Shown in pieces: positions 2,879 through 60,355 of a stretch of 64,000 bases of DNA (positions are counted from its first letter, which is position 1; every line of letters starts with the position of its first letter). A program made the translations under genes and the position numbers. This stretch comes from Escherichia virus TH41: sequence record MT446412.1, one strand, 5' to 3'. Under the pieces are notes generated by a model. The model made no database searches, was not told where the DNA came from, and worked only from the letters and a program-made list of their open reading frames with translations.

Positions 2879-3574
2879 ATGAAATTCTCTAAAGACACTA
2901 TCGCAGTTCTGAAAAACTTCACCTCCATTTACTCTGGCATTATGCTTAAGCCGGGTAATACCATCCTGACTCGTTCTGTAACCGGAGCGTCATATGGTGA
3001 ATCTGAAATCAATGATACAATCGACTTTGAAGCTGCAATTTATGACCTGAACGGCTTCTTAAGTATCCTGGGTCTGGTAACTGACCAAGCTGAAGTATCT
3101 CTGGCTGAAGATGCATCGAATATCATTATCAAAGACCAACGTTCAACGATTCACTGGCCTGCAGCTGACCCGAGCACTATCGTGTTCCCTGCTAAGAAGA
3201 TTCCTTTCCCGGTAGCTAAGGTTATCTTCGACCTGAAAGGTAGTGACCTGCAGCAGCTTCTGCGTGTGGCTGGTGGGTTGTCTCTGGATACTTTTGCAAT
3301 CACCAACAAAGACGGTAAGATTGTTATCCATGGTTATAACCAGCTCGAAGATAAAGAATTAGCACGCCCATTGTATTCCCTGGTGTGTGGCGATTACGAA
3401 GGCGATGCAGCGTTTAAATTTATCATTAACAAACTGAACATGAAAATGATTCCGGCTGATTACCGTGTTATGCTTTGGGCGAAAGATGATAAATTTGCTA
3501 CGAAGTTTGAAGGCACACAAGCAAGCTATGTGATTGCAATGGAACAAGGCTCTAGCCACGAATTCCAAGATTAA
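2879..3574 (+). CDS. 45: sliding clamp gp45
   Basis: 231 aa; N-terminus MKFSKDTIAVLKNFTSIYSGIMLK and later blocks closely match T4 gp45. Confidence 0.93.
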   Translation: MKFSKDTIAVLKNFTSIYSGIMLKPGNTILTRSVTGASYGESEINDTIDFEAAIYDLNGFLSILGLVTDQAEVSLAEDASNIIIKDQRSTIHWPAADPSTIVFPAKKIPFPVAKVIFDLKGSDLQQLLRVAGGLSLDTFAITNKDGKIVIHGYNQLEDKELARPLYSLVCGDYEGDAAFKFIINKLNMKMIPADYRVMLWAKDDKFATKFEGTQASYVIAMEQGSSHEFQD

Positions 3575-3577
3575 TAA

Positions 3578-3595
3578 ATGGGGCTTCGGCCCCAT
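3578..3595 (+). other. TTCG-tetraloop hairpin without U-tract (intercistronic 45/44)
   Basis: ATGGGGC-TTCG-GCCCCAT inverted repeat just after gene 45 stop. Confidence 0.4.
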
Positions 3596-3632
3596 GGAGT
3601 ACAAAGTAGAAACTAATATGAGGAAAATAATA

Positions 3633-4610
3633 ATGGCAACAGTAATTAACGGTTTGACAGTCAACGAATCCGACTTCATGTGGGAACAAAAATACCGCCC
3701 AGGTACATTATCAGAGTGTATTCTCCCGGCCCATGATAAAGAAACATTAGAGGCGATTGTTAAAAAAGGTTTGATTCCTAACTTGATTCTGGTCAGTAGT
3801 TCCCCTGGTACTGGTAAGACAACAGTTGCAAAAGCTATGTGTGCAGATACGAATTCTGATATGCTGTTTGTTAACGGCTCCGATTGCCGAATTGACTTTG
3901 TGCGTAATGAATTGACTCGCTTTGCATCATCCAAATCAATCGAAGGTCGCCGCAAGGTAATCGTTATCGATGAGTTTGACCGTGCAGGTCTGGCTGAATC
4001 ACAACGGCACCTCCGTAGCTTTATGGAAGCTTATTCGAGTAACTGTTCAATCATTATGACCGCGAACAATATTGATGGCATCATCACTCCGTTGCAGTCT
4101 CGTTGTCGCGTCATTAAGTTCGGTGAAGCAACTCCGGCTGACCAGACTACCATGATGAAAGAGATGATTCATCGTGCAGTTGCGGTATGTAAAAATGAAG
4201 GCGTTGAAATCGAAGACCTGAAAGTTGTTGCTGCTCTGGTTAAGCATAACTTCCCGGACCTGCGTAAGACAATTAACGAGCTTGACCGTTACTCTGCAAA
4301 GGGTGTTATCGATTCTGGTATTCTGAGTATCGTGACAAACAATCGCACGCCAATTGATGATGTGATTGATGCCCTTAAGGACCGTAATTTTAAAGTTCTC
4401 CGTGGTCTGGCTCCTAAGCATGCAAATGATTATTCAAGCTTCATTGCAAAGCTGGCTGATGAAATGTATGGCAAACTGACTGGTGCAAGTATCATCCGCA
4501 TGTATGAGATTGTAGGTGAGAATAATCAGTATCATGGCATTGCGGCCAATACCGAAGTTCACTTGACTTATCTGTTTGCTCAACTGGCTGGGGAAATGAA
4601 ATGGCTGTAA
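3633..4610 (+). CDS. 44: clamp loader large subunit gp44
   Basis: ATG at 3633 after AGGAAAA RBS; P-loop SPGTGKTT; AAA+ clamp-loader blocks near-identical to T4 gp44. Confidence 0.93.
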   Translation: MATVINGLTVNESDFMWEQKYRPGTLSECILPAHDKETLEAIVKKGLIPNLILVSSSPGTGKTTVAKAMCADTNSDMLFVNGSDCRIDFVRNELTRFASSKSIEGRRKVIVIDEFDRAGLAESQRHLRSFMEAYSSNCSIIMTANNIDGIITPLQSRCRVIKFGEATPADQTTMMKEMIHRAVAVCKNEGVEIEDLKVVAALVKHNFPDLRKTINELDRYSAKGVIDSGILSIVTNNRTPIDDVIDALKDRNFKVLRGLAPKHANDYSSFIAKLADEMYGKLTGASIIRMYEIVGENNQYHGIAANTEVHLTYLFAQLAGEMKWL

Positions 4611-12746: not shown

Positions 12747-12995
12747 ATGTTATTAGTTAATGTGCAGTACCAGTTCAAATCTGAAGAAGCTCTCCAAAAG
12801 TATGCTGATATTTGTGAGCATAATAAAAGAACAGCTGCCATTGTTGGTCTGAAGCCTTTTAAAATTTTGGATTGCTCCTTGAACAGAGCAAGACGCTGGT
12901 GTAGTGTTGCCTGTCATGCTTCAGTTGAAGGGAATGATTATTTTTTCATTACTTTCAATGCACAAGATTTTCATTTAATTAATGAATTAAAATAG
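12747..12995 (+). CDS. hypothetical protein (82 aa)
   Basis: ORF with RBS, preceded by cassette promoter and leader. Confidence 0.55.
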   Translation: MLLVNVQYQFKSEEALQKYADICEHNKRTAAIVGLKPFKILDCSLNRARRWCSVACHASVEGNDYFFITFNAQDFHLINELK

Positions 12996-25247: not shown

Positions 25248-25277
25248 GTGTACAAGGCCAATGGAAAGAGACATAAT
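25248..25277 (+). promoter_or_regulatory. early promoter cassette
   Basis: GTGTACA, 17 nt, CATAAT; stem-loop CTCATCA-actac-TGATGAG in leader. Confidence 0.6.
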
Positions 25278-25308
25278 CATCTCATCAACTACTGATGAGG
25301 ATAACAAA

Positions 25309-25566
25309 ATGATTACTTCTTTTGAAATTGGCCAACAATATGAAATGTCTGCTTTTCAAGCTGCTGAAGCAGGTCTGACTGAAGCGTTTGAATGTGCATT
25401 TACAAATATTCGTGGTAAAATCTTTACTGTCAATAAAATTGCGGTATATGATAAAGAAACAGACATGAACAAAGGCATCTACTTGAACGTGTCAAACGCA
25501 AAAGGCCGTCGTGAAATTATGGTTGTACAACCTAACCAACTGGCGATGTTCAATAAGGTTACATAA
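25309..25566 (+). CDS. hypothetical protein (85 aa)
   Basis: ATG at 25309 right after the leader. Confidence 0.5.
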   Translation: MITSFEIGQQYEMSAFQAAEAGLTEAFECAFTNIRGKIFTVNKIAVYDKETDMNKGIYLNVSNAKGRREIMVVQPNQLAMFNKVT

Positions 25567-26321
25567 TGAAACCAGAATTTATTGACTTTGATGTTGTAAG
25601 CATGTATGTTCGCCCAATTAAACCATTAAAACTTGAGAAACAAAATATGACTATTGAAATTAACAAAACTTATCAACTGATTGAACCTATTATTCAAAAC
25701 GCAGCTATGGTTTCTGGGTATAATACTCTGACTGATGCTTTAGGCGAAGGTGAATTTATTGTTGAAACTTTTGTAAAAAGTAACTGGTTTGATAAAGCAT
25801 ATATTTTGCATGCACGTCGCCTTGATACAAATGAAGTAGAAAAAATTATGGTTTATGAAGCTGAGATTGAACTCTTCAAAGAAGTTGAAGAAACTCCCAT
25901 CAAAGTTGGTAAAACCTATCAGCTTATTGAAGATGCCAGTCAGTTTGGAAAGACTGTTGCAATGCATGCCGGGTGGCGGGTACTGAAAGGTATTTTTGGA
26001 TTTGCTCCATTTACCGTTAAAACAGTTAAGTACCACAATCACCAAAGCATCTTTGAATTTACTGCGGTCAATGAATCAGGTGACAATCTTGAAGCTATCC
26101 TTTATCCGCGTGAATCTGTACTGCTGGAAGAAGTTAGCGAGCTTGGCGACCCTATTGACTTGCTATGTAAACCAGTTCAAATCAAACGCCCATTTAACAG
26201 TTCCATTTGTGGTTGGGTAACAGACCAGTGGATTGAAGATGGTGTTGAACTCCTGAACGTTGTTCATTGTGGTAGTTTTACTGTTGTACCACGTTCCATG
26301 GTTGTTGAAATTTTTAATTAA
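25566..26321 (+). CDS. hypothetical protein (251 aa) with internal repeat
   Basis: Internal duplication (INKTYQLIEP / VGKTYQLIED) and C-terminal domain shared with the ORF at 26398. Confidence 0.55.
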   Translation: MKPEFIDFDVVSMYVRPIKPLKLEKQNMTIEINKTYQLIEPIIQNAAMVSGYNTLTDALGEGEFIVETFVKSNWFDKAYILHARRLDTNEVEKIMVYEAEIELFKEVEETPIKVGKTYQLIEDASQFGKTVAMHAGWRVLKGIFGFAPFTVKTVKYHNHQSIFEFTAVNESGDNLEAILYPRESVLLEEVSELGDPIDLLCKPVQIKRPFNSSICGWVTDQWIEDGVELLNVVHCGSFTVVPRSMVVEIFN

Positions 26322-26939: not shown

Positions 26940-27170
26940 ATGTTTAATGAAGATTGCGTGACCACTTCCCTGACCGCTGAAGAGTTCTGGGAAACCGCTG
27001 AAAGTGATAAAGTGATTGTTAAGAAAAACATCAATGAATTTCTTTGCACCACTGATATCATTTATGTGTATGCGTATGAAGGCGCGGAATTACCTAGCTA
27101 TGCACTGTTCCGTGAAGAATCAGAAGATGGCACAGATTTTTGGAAGGAGACTTATCATGTTGAAATTTGA
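26940..27170 (+). CDS. hypothetical protein (76 aa)
   Basis: ORF with GAGGAGA RBS. Confidence 0.5.
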   Translation: MFNEDCVTTSLTAEEFWETAESDKVIVKKNINEFLCTTDIIYVYAYEGAELPSYALFREESEDGTDFWKETYHVEI

Positions 27171-27531
27171 AACTGATAAATGGTATTATTTTAAAGATAA
27201 TGTTGCTGAAAGCAGATTTCGTTTGTTATGCTCTGATAATGATAATATAGCTGATGCTATAATCAATGGTGAAGGATTTAGACCAGTCGGAATTGAAGGT
27301 GGTGATGTATATCGGATAGAATTTTCGACCGGTGGAATAGAGAGAATATTCATAAAGGAAGATGAGCGTCGTTTCTTTGAAGAAGAAAAAGATGACGATA
27401 CTGAAGACGAATGCGAAGACGCTGATGAAGCATTTGAACCAAGCGAATTCCCTTTGACTAAAATCACCATTTCTAATAACTCTGAAGCCTGGACCGTTTA
27501 CCAGATGTTGAAAGCACACTTTAAGGAATAA
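27157..27531 (+). CDS. hypothetical acidic protein (124 aa)
   Basis: ORF 27016..27531 with ATG at 27157; acidic C-terminal half. Confidence 0.5.
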   Translation: MLKFETDKWYYFKDNVAESRFRLLCSDNDNIADAIINGEGFRPVGIEGGDVYRIEFSTGGIERIFIKEDERRFFEEEKDDDTEDECEDADEAFEPSEFPLTKITISNNSEAWTVYQMLKAHFKE

Positions 27532-27532
27532 C

Positions 27533-27709
27533 ATGCCACTTTATGATTACAAATGCCAATCCAATGACTGCGCGAAAGAATACGAAAAAATCAAGAAAAT
27601 CTCTGAAAGAGATAATGATGTTTGCCCTGATTGCCATCGGCTGGCTGTTCGGTTAGTCTCGGCTCCTAAACATGTTAATGGCGGTTTTTACGACCTGCTG
27701 ACTAAGTGA
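27533..27709 (+). CDS. small zinc-ribbon protein (58 aa)
   Basis: MPLYDYKCQSNDC...CPDCH; two Cys pairs in FmdB-like arrangement; below the ORF-track cutoff. Confidence 0.4.
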   Translation: MPLYDYKCQSNDCAKEYEKIKKISERDNDVCPDCHRLAVRLVSAPKHVNGGFYDLLTK

Positions 27710-27715
27710 GGAATT

Positions 27716-27976
27716 ATGAAATACATTAATCGTTCTATTGCAGCACTGGTACTGGCGGTTTCATTGGCTGGTTGTACTGATGCAGATAATGCCATTCGTG
27801 TATTAGATGCAAACGGCTATGAGCAAATCCAAATCACCGGATATAATTGGTTCTCTTGCGGTAAAGATGATTTTCAACACACAGGTTTTACAGCCGTGGG
27901 CCCAACTGGTAAGAAAGTTGAAGGAACCGTTTGTTCTGGATTGCTGTTTAAGAATTCAACCATCCGATTCGAATGA
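27716..27976 (+). CDS. putative lipoprotein (86 aa)
   Basis: Signal peptide with lipobox LAGC. Confidence 0.55.
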   Translation: MKYINRSIAALVLAVSLAGCTDADNAIRVLDANGYEQIQITGYNWFSCGKDDFQHTGFTAVGPTGKKVEGTVCSGLLFKNSTIRFE

Positions 27977-27983
27977 GGATATT

Positions 27984-28382
27984 ATGTTTAAAATTGGAAA
28001 GAGTTATTGCATTAAAGATTTAGATGGCTTCCTTAAACATGTCGGTATGCCTGGTAGCATTTTGAACCAACAAGGAACCTCTATCATTGATTTGGTTACT
28101 ACCAAAGAGTTTTCAGTCACTAAGATGGAAGCAAATGTTGTTACGGAATTTAGTACTATAGATGGAACTGGATTTTCTTTCCATAGTCGTAATGGAACCG
28201 GTCTTATTTTTGGTGATGAATTTAAATATTTTGAAGAAGTCCCGGAATGTGATTCTGAAATAACCGAACAGGAATCAAAAGAGGATATCGTTGTTACCGG
28301 CGGCGATGTTATTATTACGGTTAAAACTGAAGCCGGCCGTCTACAAGCTATTAAAATGTTAGAGCAGCTTCGATTCAAATAA
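27984..28382 (+). CDS. hypothetical protein (132 aa)
   Basis: ORF 27807..28382 with ATG at 27984 after GAGGA RBS. Confidence 0.5.
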   Translation: MFKIGKSYCIKDLDGFLKHVGMPGSILNQQGTSIIDLVTTKEFSVTKMEANVVTEFSTIDGTGFSFHSRNGTGLIFGDEFKYFEEVPECDSEITEQESKEDIVVTGGDVIITVKTEAGRLQAIKMLEQLRFK

Positions 28383-55168: not shown

Positions 55169-55833
55169 TTACGATTCGCATGCCTCCAAATAACAACCGA
55201 TATATAAATGGTAAATCAGTATACCAACTGTACTTATCCATCAAACAGCATTTTTCGGGTCGTTATGATATTATCAAATATAACTGGACCATGCGAATCT
55301 CCGATAGTGCTTATCAAAAACGTCGCGATAAGTATTTTTTCGAAAAGCTTAGCGATAAGTACACTCTCAAAGAATTAACGTTAATATTCATGTCAAACCT
55401 GGTTGCGAACCAGGATGCATGGATAGGCGATATAAGTGATGCCGATGCTCTGATATTTTATAGAGAATACATTGGTAGACTTAAAAGAATTAGACAAGTA
55501 TACGAAGATGATATAAAGAACATCTATTACTTCAGTAAGAAAGTCGAAGTCAAATCGCTCCAAGAGATTTTCGAGTATAATACTAAAGTGAACACAAGTT
55601 ATATTTTCAAACTTCTCCAATCGAATGTTATCTCATTTGAAACGTTTTGTTTGCTTGATTCATTTTTAGGTATTATAAATAAACATGATGAACAGACTAA
55701 CGACTTGGTTTGGGAAAAGTATTCAACCAAACTAAATGCCTATAAGAAAATCTTAAATATAGATTCTCTTGAAGCTCGTAAATTGTTCATCGAGACCGTT
55801 AAAAACTGTCAAATAACGCTTCAATCACTTTGA
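55165..55833 (+). CDS. 59: helicase loader gp59
   Basis: 222 aa; YNWTMRISDSAYQKRRDKYFFEKLSDKY...LVANQDAWIGDISDADA matches T4 gp59. Confidence 0.9.
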   Translation: MITIRMPPNNNRYINGKSVYQLYLSIKQHFSGRYDIIKYNWTMRISDSAYQKRRDKYFFEKLSDKYTLKELTLIFMSNLVANQDAWIGDISDADALIFYREYIGRLKRIRQVYEDDIKNIYYFSKKVEVKSLQEIFEYNTKVNTSYIFKLLQSNVISFETFCLLDSFLGIINKHDEQTNDLVWEKYSTKLNAYKKILNIDSLEARKLFIETVKNCQITLQSL

Positions 55834-55893
55834 AGTATAATTAATACGTAATCAAAACAACTGCTAAAAATCAAATAATCTAAGGAAAATCAT

Positions 55894-56805
55894 ATGTCTA
55901 TGTTTAAACGTAAAAACCCTGCTGACCTGGCTGCTTCCCTTAACGCTCTGAAAGGTGGTGCTGGTTTCTCTTCTGACGATAAAAAAGAATGGAAACTGAA
56001 AGATACTGATGGTGTCGGCTCTGCGGTTATTCGTTTCCTGCCTTCTAAGAATGAAGAAAATCCATCTCCGTTCATCAAGCTCGTTAACCACGGCTTTAAA
56101 AACGCGGGTCAATGGTATATTGAAAACTGTACTTCTACTCACGGTGATTATGAAAACTGTCCTGTGTGTGCGTACATGAATAAGAATGACCTGTACAATA
56201 CAAACGAATCCGAATATCGTAAACTGAAGCGTAATACTTCTTACTGGGCTAACATCCTGGTCATTAAAGACCCTGCTGTTCCGTCTAATGAAGGTCAAGT
56301 ATTCAAATACCGCTTCGGCAAGAAAATCATGGACAAAATCAACCAGATGGTTGAAGTCGATGTTGACATGGGTGAAACTGCTATCGATGTAACTTGTCCG
56401 TTTGAAGGTGCGAACTTCGTACTGAAATCTAAAATGGTTTCCGGTTATAAAAACTACGATGATTCCAAATTCATGAACCAGTCTGAAATCGCTGGTATCA
56501 ATGATGAAGCATTCCAGAAAAAACTTTGGGACGAAATGTCTGACCTGAATGAATTGCTGGTATTTAAATCTCTTGAAGAGAATCAGAAGAAATTCTCTAA
56601 AGTAATGGGTACGGCTGCTCTCGGTGGTGCTGCTTCTAAAGCTGCTGCGCAAGCCGATAAACTGGGCGCTGACCTGGACGATTTTGATAAAGATATGGAA
56701 GACTTCACTTCCAGCAAACCTGCTAAGTCTGAACGCACTGCGACTGCTCCAAGCACTCCAGAGCCTTCTGATGATGGTCTTGACGACCTTCTGGCTGGCC
56801 TTTAA
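55894..56805 (+). CDS. 32: ssDNA-binding protein gp32
   Basis: 303 aa; zinc site [10 protein letters not shown]; acidic C-terminal tail; collinear with T4 gp32 (start may be the second ATG at 55900). Confidence 0.95.
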
Positions 56806-56809
56806 TATA

Positions 56810-56834
56810 AGGGGACCTTCGGGTCCCTTTTTTA
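56810..56834 (+). terminator. intrinsic terminator (TTCG tetraloop)
   Basis: GGGACC-TTCG-GGTCCC followed by TTTTTT. Confidence 0.7.
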
Positions 56835-56847
56835 TTTTCAAAAAGTA

Positions 56848-56877
56848 GTGTACAAGTCCCTTGAGCTAAGGCATAAT
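56848..56877 (+). promoter_or_regulatory. early promoter cassette
   Basis: GTGTACA, 17 nt, CATAAT; leader CATCAACTACTGA. Confidence 0.6.
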
Positions 56878-56915: not shown

Positions 56916-57278
56916 ATGGAAATCGGCAAAAAATATGAGTTCAATCCACATCGTATTAAATCTTTCATTGATATTAGTTCATCGAATGCTAGTATGGTTG
57001 ACATCATCCAAGAAAATGGCGGTTGGTTTGAAGTTAAATCAATATCAAGTGCAGACGGCTATGATTATGTAACCGAAATCATTTGTGCTAATGGTGCAAT
57101 CTATAATGATGATGGCATGGGTGATGATTATTTTGAACTTAGTGAAGAAGAGTTTTATTGCTTCCGTGAATACTCTAGTTATACAAAAACACCTTCAGGG
57201 GCGGTTTCTATTAATTGTGTTGTAGATGTTAATAACGTCGACCAAATCATTGAACTTCTACAAAAAGCTTTCAAATAG
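56916..57278 (+). CDS. hypothetical acidic protein (120 aa)
   Basis: ORF; paralogous to 57628..57996. Confidence 0.55.
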   Translation: MEIGKKYEFNPHRIKSFIDISSSNASMVDIIQENGGWFEVKSISSADGYDYVTEIICANGAIYNDDGMGDDYFELSEEEFYCFREYSSYTKTPSGAVSINCVVDVNNVDQIIELLQKAFK

Positions 57279-57280
57279 CA

Positions 57281-57310
57281 GTTTACAACGGGTCTATGAT
57301 TATGTTATTA
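57281..57310 (+). promoter_or_regulatory. early promoter cassette
   Basis: GTTTACA; GGTCTAT..ATAGACC inverted repeat around an AT-rich -10; leader CTATCAACTACATGAGG. Confidence 0.5.
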
Positions 57311-57340
57311 TAGACCTATCAACTACATGAGGAAAATAAA

Positions 57341-57568
57341 ATGGCTAAGGTTAATATTGATATCGTTGATTTTGAATACACTTACGAAGTTATTCGTAAT
57401 CGGTATCCTTCTTTGTGTATGACTTACATTAAAGATACTGAAGTCTTTGGTATTCAAATTGAAGTCCAAGGTCCTCTTGAAGATATTACCCGCTTTATGC
57501 AAAATGAATATTGTGACGGTATGTACCCAGAAGACGCTGAATTTTATATGGGTTTGATTCAAGCTTAG
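57341..57568 (+). CDS. hypothetical protein (75 aa)
   Basis: ORF. Confidence 0.5.
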
Positions 57569-57602
57569 TATACAAACCAACTGGAACATGATAATATGTT
57601 CC
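57568..57602 (+). promoter_or_regulatory. early promoter cassette with -10 in hairpin loop
   Basis: GTATACA; GGAACAT-gataat-ATGTTCC perfect inverted repeat (57583-57602). Confidence 0.5.
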
Positions 57603-57627
57603 CTCAATTGAATATGAGGAAATTAAA

Positions 57628-57996
57628 ATGATGGAAACTGGTAAATTTTACGTATTAGACCCTGCTGCCAAAAAACAATTCATCGCTGGTAGTCCTGATG
57701 ACAATTCGCGTATGATTAAGTTGATGGAACAACATGGTAGTTCCTTCAAAGTCCTGGACATGTGCTTTATTGATGGCGATTATTTTGTTGAAAAAGTTGA
57801 AATGAAAGATGGCACCATCCTGGATAGTATGGATGGTGCTGATGAGTACTTTGAACTCGCTGAATGGGAATTCCGTCACTTCATAGAAGTAGATGGTGAT
57901 GCTCCTGATGTTGATACCCAAACCATTCATGTGCAAGTCAATCACAAAAATGCAGCAGAAGTCATTGCACTGATTAAAGCAACTTTTGGGGTCTAA
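57628..57996 (+). CDS. hypothetical acidic protein (122 aa)
   Basis: ORF; paralogous to 56916..57278. Confidence 0.55.
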   Translation: MMETGKFYVLDPAAKKQFIAGSPDDNSRMIKLMEQHGSSFKVLDMCFIDGDYFVEKVEMKDGTILDSMDGADEYFELAEWEFRHFIEVDGDAPDVDTQTIHVQVNHKNAAEVIALIKATFGV

Positions 57997-58252
57997 CATG
58001 ACTAAAGATGATTTCCTGGATGCAGTAGAAAAAGCAAGCGAACAGTTTGAAGTAATGGGTGTACGAGTTCATAAAGACAGAAATTATGGTCTGGATGTTC
58101 AAACATACTCATTATGGCTTGTTGGTGAGCACAGTCTTGCAACCAATCTGGTGATGGGTATGGATGTTCATCCTTTATTAGTTAAGTTCAGAAGTATGGA
58201 AAAAGCCACCAAGGAAATGATTAAACTTGGCAAATGGCTTGATAAAATTTAA
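57986..58252 (+). CDS. hypothetical protein (88 aa)
   Basis: ORF. Confidence 0.5.
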   Translation: MGSNMTKDDFLDAVEKASEQFEVMGVRVHKDRNYGLDVQTYSLWLVGEHSLATNLVMGMDVHPLLVKFRSMEKATKEMIKLGKWLDKI

Positions 58253-58258
58253 AAAGTA

Positions 58259-58288
58259 GTGTACAACCAAATGGGGCTATGACATAAT
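58259..58288 (+). promoter_or_regulatory. early promoter cassette
   Basis: GTGTACA, 17 nt, CATAAT; leader CCATACTGAGTT. Confidence 0.6.
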
Positions 58289-58329
58289 GGTCCCATACTG
58301 AGTTAACAACTAAAACCCTGGAGAATAAA

Positions 58330-58569
58330 ATGAAATTACAACGTGAGAGCATCAAAGATTCAGAAGTTAAAGGCAAATGGTACTTCACAATCCAGGGTAA
58401 CAATCCAGAAGCTCTGGAAAAAGCTGAAGAAACTTTATGCGCGATGGGTTGGAAAGATGAGTGCGATGGTTGCCCTCTTTATGAAGATGGTAGCTCATCT
58501 GGTTTCTGGATTCACCACTCTGACGTTGACCAATTTAAAGCTGACTGGAAAGTTGCTAAGAAAGCGTGA
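58330..58569 (+). CDS. hypothetical protein (79 aa)
   Basis: ORF after the cassette. Confidence 0.5.
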   Translation: MKLQRESIKDSEVKGKWYFTIQGNNPEALEKAEETLCAMGWKDECDGCPLYEDGSSSGFWIHHSDVDQFKADWKVAKKA

Positions 58570-58579
58570 GGAAAATATA

Positions 58580-60355
<1,776 letters not shown>

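Follow-up and report, generated by a model that had tools for sequence, protein, structure and literature searches.

Our analysis showed that the two acidic open reading frames downstream of gene 32 in Escherichia virus TH41 (MT446412.1), which we call ORF A and ORF B, are very probably paralogous copies of the T4 early gene frd.2 (Pfam FRD2) that separated long ago. The window, i.e. the whole stretch of 64,000 nucleotides that was analysed, matches Escherichia phage UPEC01 (MW233709; Gaprivervirus, Tevenvirinae) with 100% identity and many other relatives with 93-97%. Both genes lie in the gene 32-frd interval of this T4-like genome, where the T4 replication cluster rnh-dsbA-33-59-32 is followed by frd-td. 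ORF A (56916..57278, +) encodes a T4-type Frd.2 of 120 aa with a pI of 4.23, or Frd.2a, and ORF B (57628..57996, +) a JS98/Dhakavirus-type Frd.2 of 122 aa with a pI of 4.45, or Frd.2b. The gene family and the arrangement are already annotated: the Shigella phage SP18 (GQ981382, Gaprivervirus) has the same pair in the same order under the names frd.2a and frd.2b, its copies being 97% (A) and 89% (B) identical to those of the window and followed by the same orf84-frd.1-orf113 genes.

The first-pass annotation had described A and B as an acidic pair with a shared architecture (GGWFEVKSI and DDYFELSEEEF in A, GSSFKVLDM and DEYFELAEWEF in B), and all of this was borne out. The two ORFs and their motifs are present as described, the proteins carry net charges of -12 (A) and -13 (B), and BLASTP aligned them over their full length with 31% identity in 121 residues (E 2e-14). 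Both cover positions 1-95 of the 96 of the Pfam FRD2 profile (PF03197), A with 121.6 bits (E 2.4e-35) and B with 111 bits (E 4.9e-32), well above the cut-off of 29; phrog_622 is matched by the two as well. This concordance of the direct alignment with the two family assignments indicates that their similarity is a matter of real homology rather than chance. ORF A is 79% identical to T4 Frd.2 (NP_049852) over its full length (E 5e-72) and B 32%. Like A, T4 frd.2 is an early-region gene between gene 32 and frd, and the same Pfam model also fits B; T4 has a single frd.2 located after frd.3, whereas the window has two diverged copies flanking it.

The divergence of the pair is old. The synonymous sites of A and B have diverged to saturation (dS about 2.2), and their affinities are mosaic: in global alignments, counting ungapped columns, A is 83% identical to its T4 counterpart versus 62% to the Dhakavirus copy, and B is 90% identical to the copy of Dhakavirus CLBP2. 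Together, these two observations rule out a recent tandem duplication. Within each lineage, dN/dS is low (0.10-0.22 for A, 0.14-0.24 for B), and selection thus maintains both copies. The idea that the A-B likeness reflects chance, or a recent tandem duplication with one copy decaying, has the adjacency of the two genes and nothing else in its favour, and the full-length E value of 2e-14, the purifying selection on both copies, the close orthologs of each in other genera and the saturated dS leave it with a negligible probability. FRD2 homologs occur in 887 phage records, 66 of which carry a B-type gene (at least 60% identity); about 81 records have two FRD2 copies, those sampled being mostly Gaprivervirus and Dhakavirus.

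The annotation had further proposed that A and B each have their own cassette promoter and that a third cassette-driven ORF lies between them, and we recovered both features. A promoter and an RBS/start repeat precede A, frd.3 and B, at 56848, 57281 and 57568, respectively, and the intervening ORF (57341..57568, +) is frd.3. Each of these three genes is thus preceded by a predicted sigma-70 early promoter and RBS cassette of the PeSL type. The promoters have the form GT(G/T/A)TACA-N-(C/T/G)AT(A/T)AT, close to the early-promoter consensus reported for T4/PST (TTTACW-N17-TAYWAT), and one is found before each of A, frd.3, B and frd.1, as is the repeat GAGGAAAxTAAAATG. Regular-expression and consensus scans of the whole window identified 17 such promoters on the plus strand and none on the minus strand, with 0.7 expected from shuffled sequences. 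They are located at 12995, 20509, 21845, 25248, 26326, 35379, 35725, 36312, 36460, 36942, 37354, 39939, 42639, 56848, 57281, 57568 and 58259 (all +). Many of the seventeen have a lead, AAAAAGTAGTGTACAA, and a tail, GATTCCATACTGAGTT, in common; the lead and the GAGGAAAxTAAAATG repeat are both present at 56848, 57281, 57568 and 58259. Since the cassettes are of the early type, A, frd.3 and B would be predicted to be expressed as early as the first minutes after infection.

The individual cassettes differ in where their secondary structure lies. That of ORF A (GTGTACAA ... CATAAT; 56848..56877, +; found by both scans) draws its stem-loop from the intrinsic terminator hairpin of gene 32 (56809..56830, +; a 9-bp stem containing 5 GC pairs and then a run of T), located 18 nt before the -35 box of A; the cassette also forms a 49-nt direct repeat with that of frd.1, at 58248-58296 (76% identity). 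In the frd.3 cassette (GTTTACAA ... TATTAT; 57281..57311, +; both scans), a hairpin of -13.7 kcal/mol (z -4.9) brackets the -10, as does one with z -3.2 in the cassette of ORF B (GTATACAA ... GATAAT; 57568..57595, +; consensus scan), and the frd.1 cassette (58259..58288, +; found in the scans) has a hairpin overlapping the -10 (z -3.4). Strong hairpins bracketing the -10 (z below -3) occur in 7 of the 17 cassettes, including those of frd.3, B and frd.1. In PeSLs, the stem-loop lies mostly between the promoter boxes or overlaps the -10 (Arbiol 2010, PMC2839356; Comeau 2014, PMC4122927). The window cassettes resemble these elements in their AT-rich lead, sigma-70-like -35 and -10 boxes, a stem-loop at or just upstream of the -10, an SD and ATG, their location in a plastic region and the presence of indel breakpoints inside the cassette. 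They differ in using the variant GT(G/T/A)TACA ... (C/T/G)AT(A/T)AT and in having a strong hairpin in only 7 of 17 cases, and they are known here from sequence. The strict promoter expression had no matches at the T4 and Dhakavirus CLBP2 loci, suggesting that the cassette sequences are lineage-specific.

Comparison with relatives showed that the genes of this interval are gained, lost and rearranged among related phages through homologous recombination between such repeated cassettes. After gene 32, the order is A - frd.3 - B - orf84 - frd.1 in the window (UPEC01), A - B - orf84 - frd.1 in SP18, frd.3 - A - frd.1 (then frd) in T4, B - A - orf84 - frd.3 - frd.1 in Dhakavirus CLBP2, A - orf84 - frd.3 - B - frd.1 in Dhakavirus 04086, and B - orf84 - frd.3 in ECML-359, i.e. 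five different cassette orders among the relatives. SP18 lacks the frd.3 cassette between its two copies, and its B is driven by the promoter that serves frd.3 in the window: the SP18 spacer between A and B has the same sequence as the frd.3 promoter of the window up to the SD-ATG and continues thereafter as B coding sequence. This junction places the crossover of the frd.3 indel inside the 17-nt direct repeat ATGAGGAAA(A/T)TAAAATG, precisely as predicted by the PeSL recombination model (PMC2839356, PMC4122927). Two old paralogs therefore flank frd.3 because of cassette recombination, rather than recent tandem duplication.

The gene between A and B encodes a Frd.3 protein of 75 aa and pI 4.05 (Pfam Phage_FRD3, E 3.4e-35) that is 69% identical to T4 Frd.3. 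Its AF2 model (pLDDT 95.8) has a generic ferredoxin-like beta-alpha-beta-beta-alpha-alpha fold with many equally good structural neighbours, and provided no functional lead. Frd.3 matches only the C-terminal 74 positions of the 391-position phrog_1764, which suggests that some of its relatives may be longer fusion proteins. Downstream of the pair, orf84 (phrog_4423; 57998..58252, +) begins 1 nt beyond the B stop codon without a promoter of its own, and is predicted from this arrangement to be co-transcribed with B. In relatives, orf84 always follows an FRD2 gene directly on the 3' side, overlapping it or separated from it by at most 1 nt, suggesting either that the two are functionally coupled or that FRD2 genes recombine within their conserved 3' end. 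The preceding FRD2 gene is of the B type in Gaprivervirus and of the A type in both Dhakavirus loci; the orf84 sites compared are 57998-58252 in the window, 3386-3646 in locus L004 and 3326-3649 in locus L005.

Elsewhere in the locus, gene 32, encoding the ssDNA-binding protein (55894..56805, +), was assigned from the UPEC01 annotation and by phmmer against the T4 gene 32 ORF (E 3e-119), and frd.1 (DUF5417; 58330..58569, +) by Pfam (E 1.5e-35). The interval between genes 59 and 32 (55833-55894) is without the segG homing-endonuclease gene that T4 and SP18 have there. The UPEC01 GenBank record does not contain frd.1/DUF5417, and has in its place a 60-aa ORF on the minus strand (58221-58403) and an N-terminally extended orf113 (58457-58921, +), which is probably a mis-annotation. 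Family support is lacking for two ORFs on the minus strand within frd.3 and B (57323-57607 and 57655-57999), which were taken as probable antisense artefacts. A search of the whole window against Rfam gave no matches.

To place Frd.2 structurally, a model of A was predicted with AF2 from 46 homologs (pLDDT 87.6). It shows a small SH3/Tudor/LSm-like beta-barrel, bent, five-stranded, antiparallel and N-terminal, with a strand at residues 6-9, two helices, strands at 37-46, 49-57 and 62-64, a helix at 77-82 and a strand at 83-85, followed in the C-terminal part by a poorly ordered acidic linker and a helix at 108-119. On this model, Frd.2 would consist of the N-terminal barrel, a conserved acidic-aromatic segment (D-YFEL-E-EF--F-E) and a short C-terminal strand-helix. 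A Foldseek search of viral models (BFVD) with the model of A gave 59 matches at E <=1e-3, including VR7 GoF (E 5e-6) and T4 MotB.1 (E 8e-5), which independently reproduces the relationship described by Kim et al. 2025 (PMC12152347). The FeoA-type SH3-like structural neighbours of their GoF/MotB.1/Frd.2 'LSm-like fold' family were also found for A. T4 GoF has the full Frd.2 architecture in common, including the acidic linker and the C-terminal strand-helix, while MotB.1 shares the barrel. A sequence search of the PDB with the FRD2 profile yielded only noise (best E 0.028, a kinase), NCBIfam gave no matches and PADLOC a single noise match. In an exhaustive search of representative proteins, giant RTX/HCBP_related and RCC1 repeat proteins (P0112, P0123, P0131) scored against FRD2 in both directions; these scores are sums of many sub-threshold matches to one beta-hairpin, and hence likely artefacts.

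The family is larger in this genome than the A-B pair, with no fewer than three more genes in the window. Whereas Kim et al. 2025 (PMC12152347) dealt with the single Frd.2 of T4, the window has two Frd.2 lineages, a GoF ortholog, an extra FRD2-like gene and a double MotB.1-like ORF. The GoF ortholog (27157..27531, +) matches phrog_622 (E 2.8e-29), to which GoF and Frd.2 both belong, and is 33% identical to T4 GoF (E 1e-12). The narrow FRD2 profile did not detect it significantly in hhalign (E 0.27), so that it is the broader phrog_622 profile, together with structure, that supports the link to GoF. The extra FRD2/GoF-like paralog, beside gene 39 (27984..28382, +; phrog_622 E 2e-17, with a match to the goF C-terminus), is placed by an NJ tree within the FRD2 radiation and is weakly detected by the FRD2 profile in hhalign (E 2e-4). 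The third further member is a 251-aa ORF (25566..26321, +) with two MotB.1-like barrels in tandem that belongs to phrog_2333, the PHROG of T4 MotB.1; its residues 112-223 share 37% identity with T4 MotB.1 (E 7e-17) and its internal repeat is visible in the alignment. All have in common the N-terminal start (E/K)(I/V)(G/N)KxY, an FxV strand and an acidic-aromatic segment of the form E-x-(E/D)-F-x-x-F-x-E-(V/Y). A 101-aa ORF at 25261-25566 has the same EIGxxYE start motif and may be a further member of the barrel family. A small zinc-ribbon ORF (27533-27709; MPLYDYKCQS...), homologous by eye to T4 39.2 (FmdB-like), has the GoF ortholog on one side and a predicted lipoprotein ORF (27716-27976) on the other.

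The frd.2 RNA is present 5 min post-infection (PMC6070864), and frd.2 amber mutants are viable and plate normally (PMC12152347). The 'Fit' call of T4 frd.2 in a CRISPRi-ART screen, which was marginal (score 0.83, p 0.027, as against 3.29 for gene 32; PMC11879866), is at odds with this normal plating. The mutant GoF(D25Y), and not wild-type GoF, stabilises mRNA (the gene 41 leader RNA); an RNA reporter did not respond to wild-type GoF or MotB.1, and essentially GoF alone was recovered in GoF pull-downs (PMC12152347). In our data, negative charge is a conserved property of the family: 30 representatives have pI values of 4.14-5.27 and net charges of -4 to -19, residues 64-90 alone carry a net charge of -8 in A and B alike, and acidic residues are conserved at D70, E74, E77, E79 and E85, of which E79 and E85 are invariant. 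This charge disfavours direct nucleic-acid binding by the wild-type proteins, which we consider less likely, and is consistent with an effect on RNA being confined to the charge-altering GoF mutant.

As part of our main explanation, we tentatively propose, at somewhat less than an even chance, that the Frd.2 copies are early, dispensable accessories of host takeover. Their basic partner, contacted through the barrel and the acidic segment, would most likely be a protein from the RNA or transcription machinery of the host, and this binding would tune gene expression post-transcriptionally; the two copies may have diverged in their specificity for partners or host variants. Because wild-type GoF and MotB.1 left the RNA reporter unaffected and GoF was recovered essentially by itself, the assignment of the partner to the RNA machinery is a conjecture. 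In an alternative that we think unlikely, Frd.2 would be an adaptor of RNA polymerase or Rho, its Tudor/KOW-like barrel (cf. CarD, Mfd, UvrD/PcrA and NusG-KOW) docking on RNAP beta or Rho; such docking would alter termination or elongation early in infection.

Another proposal, which likewise has little probability, is that the acidic-aromatic face that is conserved on the Frd.2/GoF barrel serves as a decoy for the nucleic-acid-binding or RNAP-docking surface of a host factor, with Rho, the RNAP beta lobe, RNase E/degradosome or a nucleoid protein as candidate targets. If this were true, the two Frd.2 lineages, GoF, the extra FRD2-like gene and the double MotB.1 would make up a small arsenal of paralogous decoys that differ in target or host-allele specificity and move between genera as promoter cassettes. 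It is improbable, too, that Frd.2 acts as an RNA chaperone or binder of the Sm/Hfq type. The five-stranded bent barrel of the A model, the presence of Hfq among the structural neighbours reported by Kim et al. 2025 (PMC12152347) and the stabilisation of the gene 41 leader RNA by GoF(D25Y) would be in agreement with such a role; the set of hallmarks of Sm/Hfq proper (Sm1/Sm2 motifs, an N-terminal helix before the barrel and ring oligomers) was not found for Frd.2.

The first-pass suggestion that these acidic duplicated proteins could act as DNA mimics received no support. Frd.2 would here imitate the phosphate backbone of DNA to sequester DNA-binding proteins of the host, for example restriction enzymes or nucleoid proteins; in favour of this are the low pI of A and B, the maintenance of acidity across the 30 family representatives, its clustering in a conserved segment and the early expression predicted from the cassettes. 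There are also precedents, since CarS is an SH3-like DNA mimic and T4 encodes the DNA mimic Arn. The acidity of A and B is moderate, however, placing them among the most acidic 11-16% of the ORFs in the window, and no known mimic family was matched by sequence or fold. Frd.2 is small, acidic and early, as are the phage mimics T7 Ocr, ArdA and T4 Arn, but it was not found to be related to them in sequence or fold, its charge density appears to be much lower and, unlike the case of these mimics, the only genetics of its family concerns mRNA. Taken together, we consider DNA mimicry very doubtful.

Our study adds little that is new, given that the phage genome is published, that both genes belong to a curated Pfam family, and that the fold family and the mechanism of cassette shuffling are both already in the literature. 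What the locus offers is a clean, base-resolved case of PeSL-type exchange, with the crossover at frd.3 lying in the SD-ATG repeat and five gene orders among close relatives. Frd.2 is a widely conserved early protein of T4-like phages, with a marginal fitness signal in one screen. With conservation across 887 phage records and a fitness signal of this kind, a natural system of two paralogs, such as the one described here, could therefore help to dissect the function of Frd.2.
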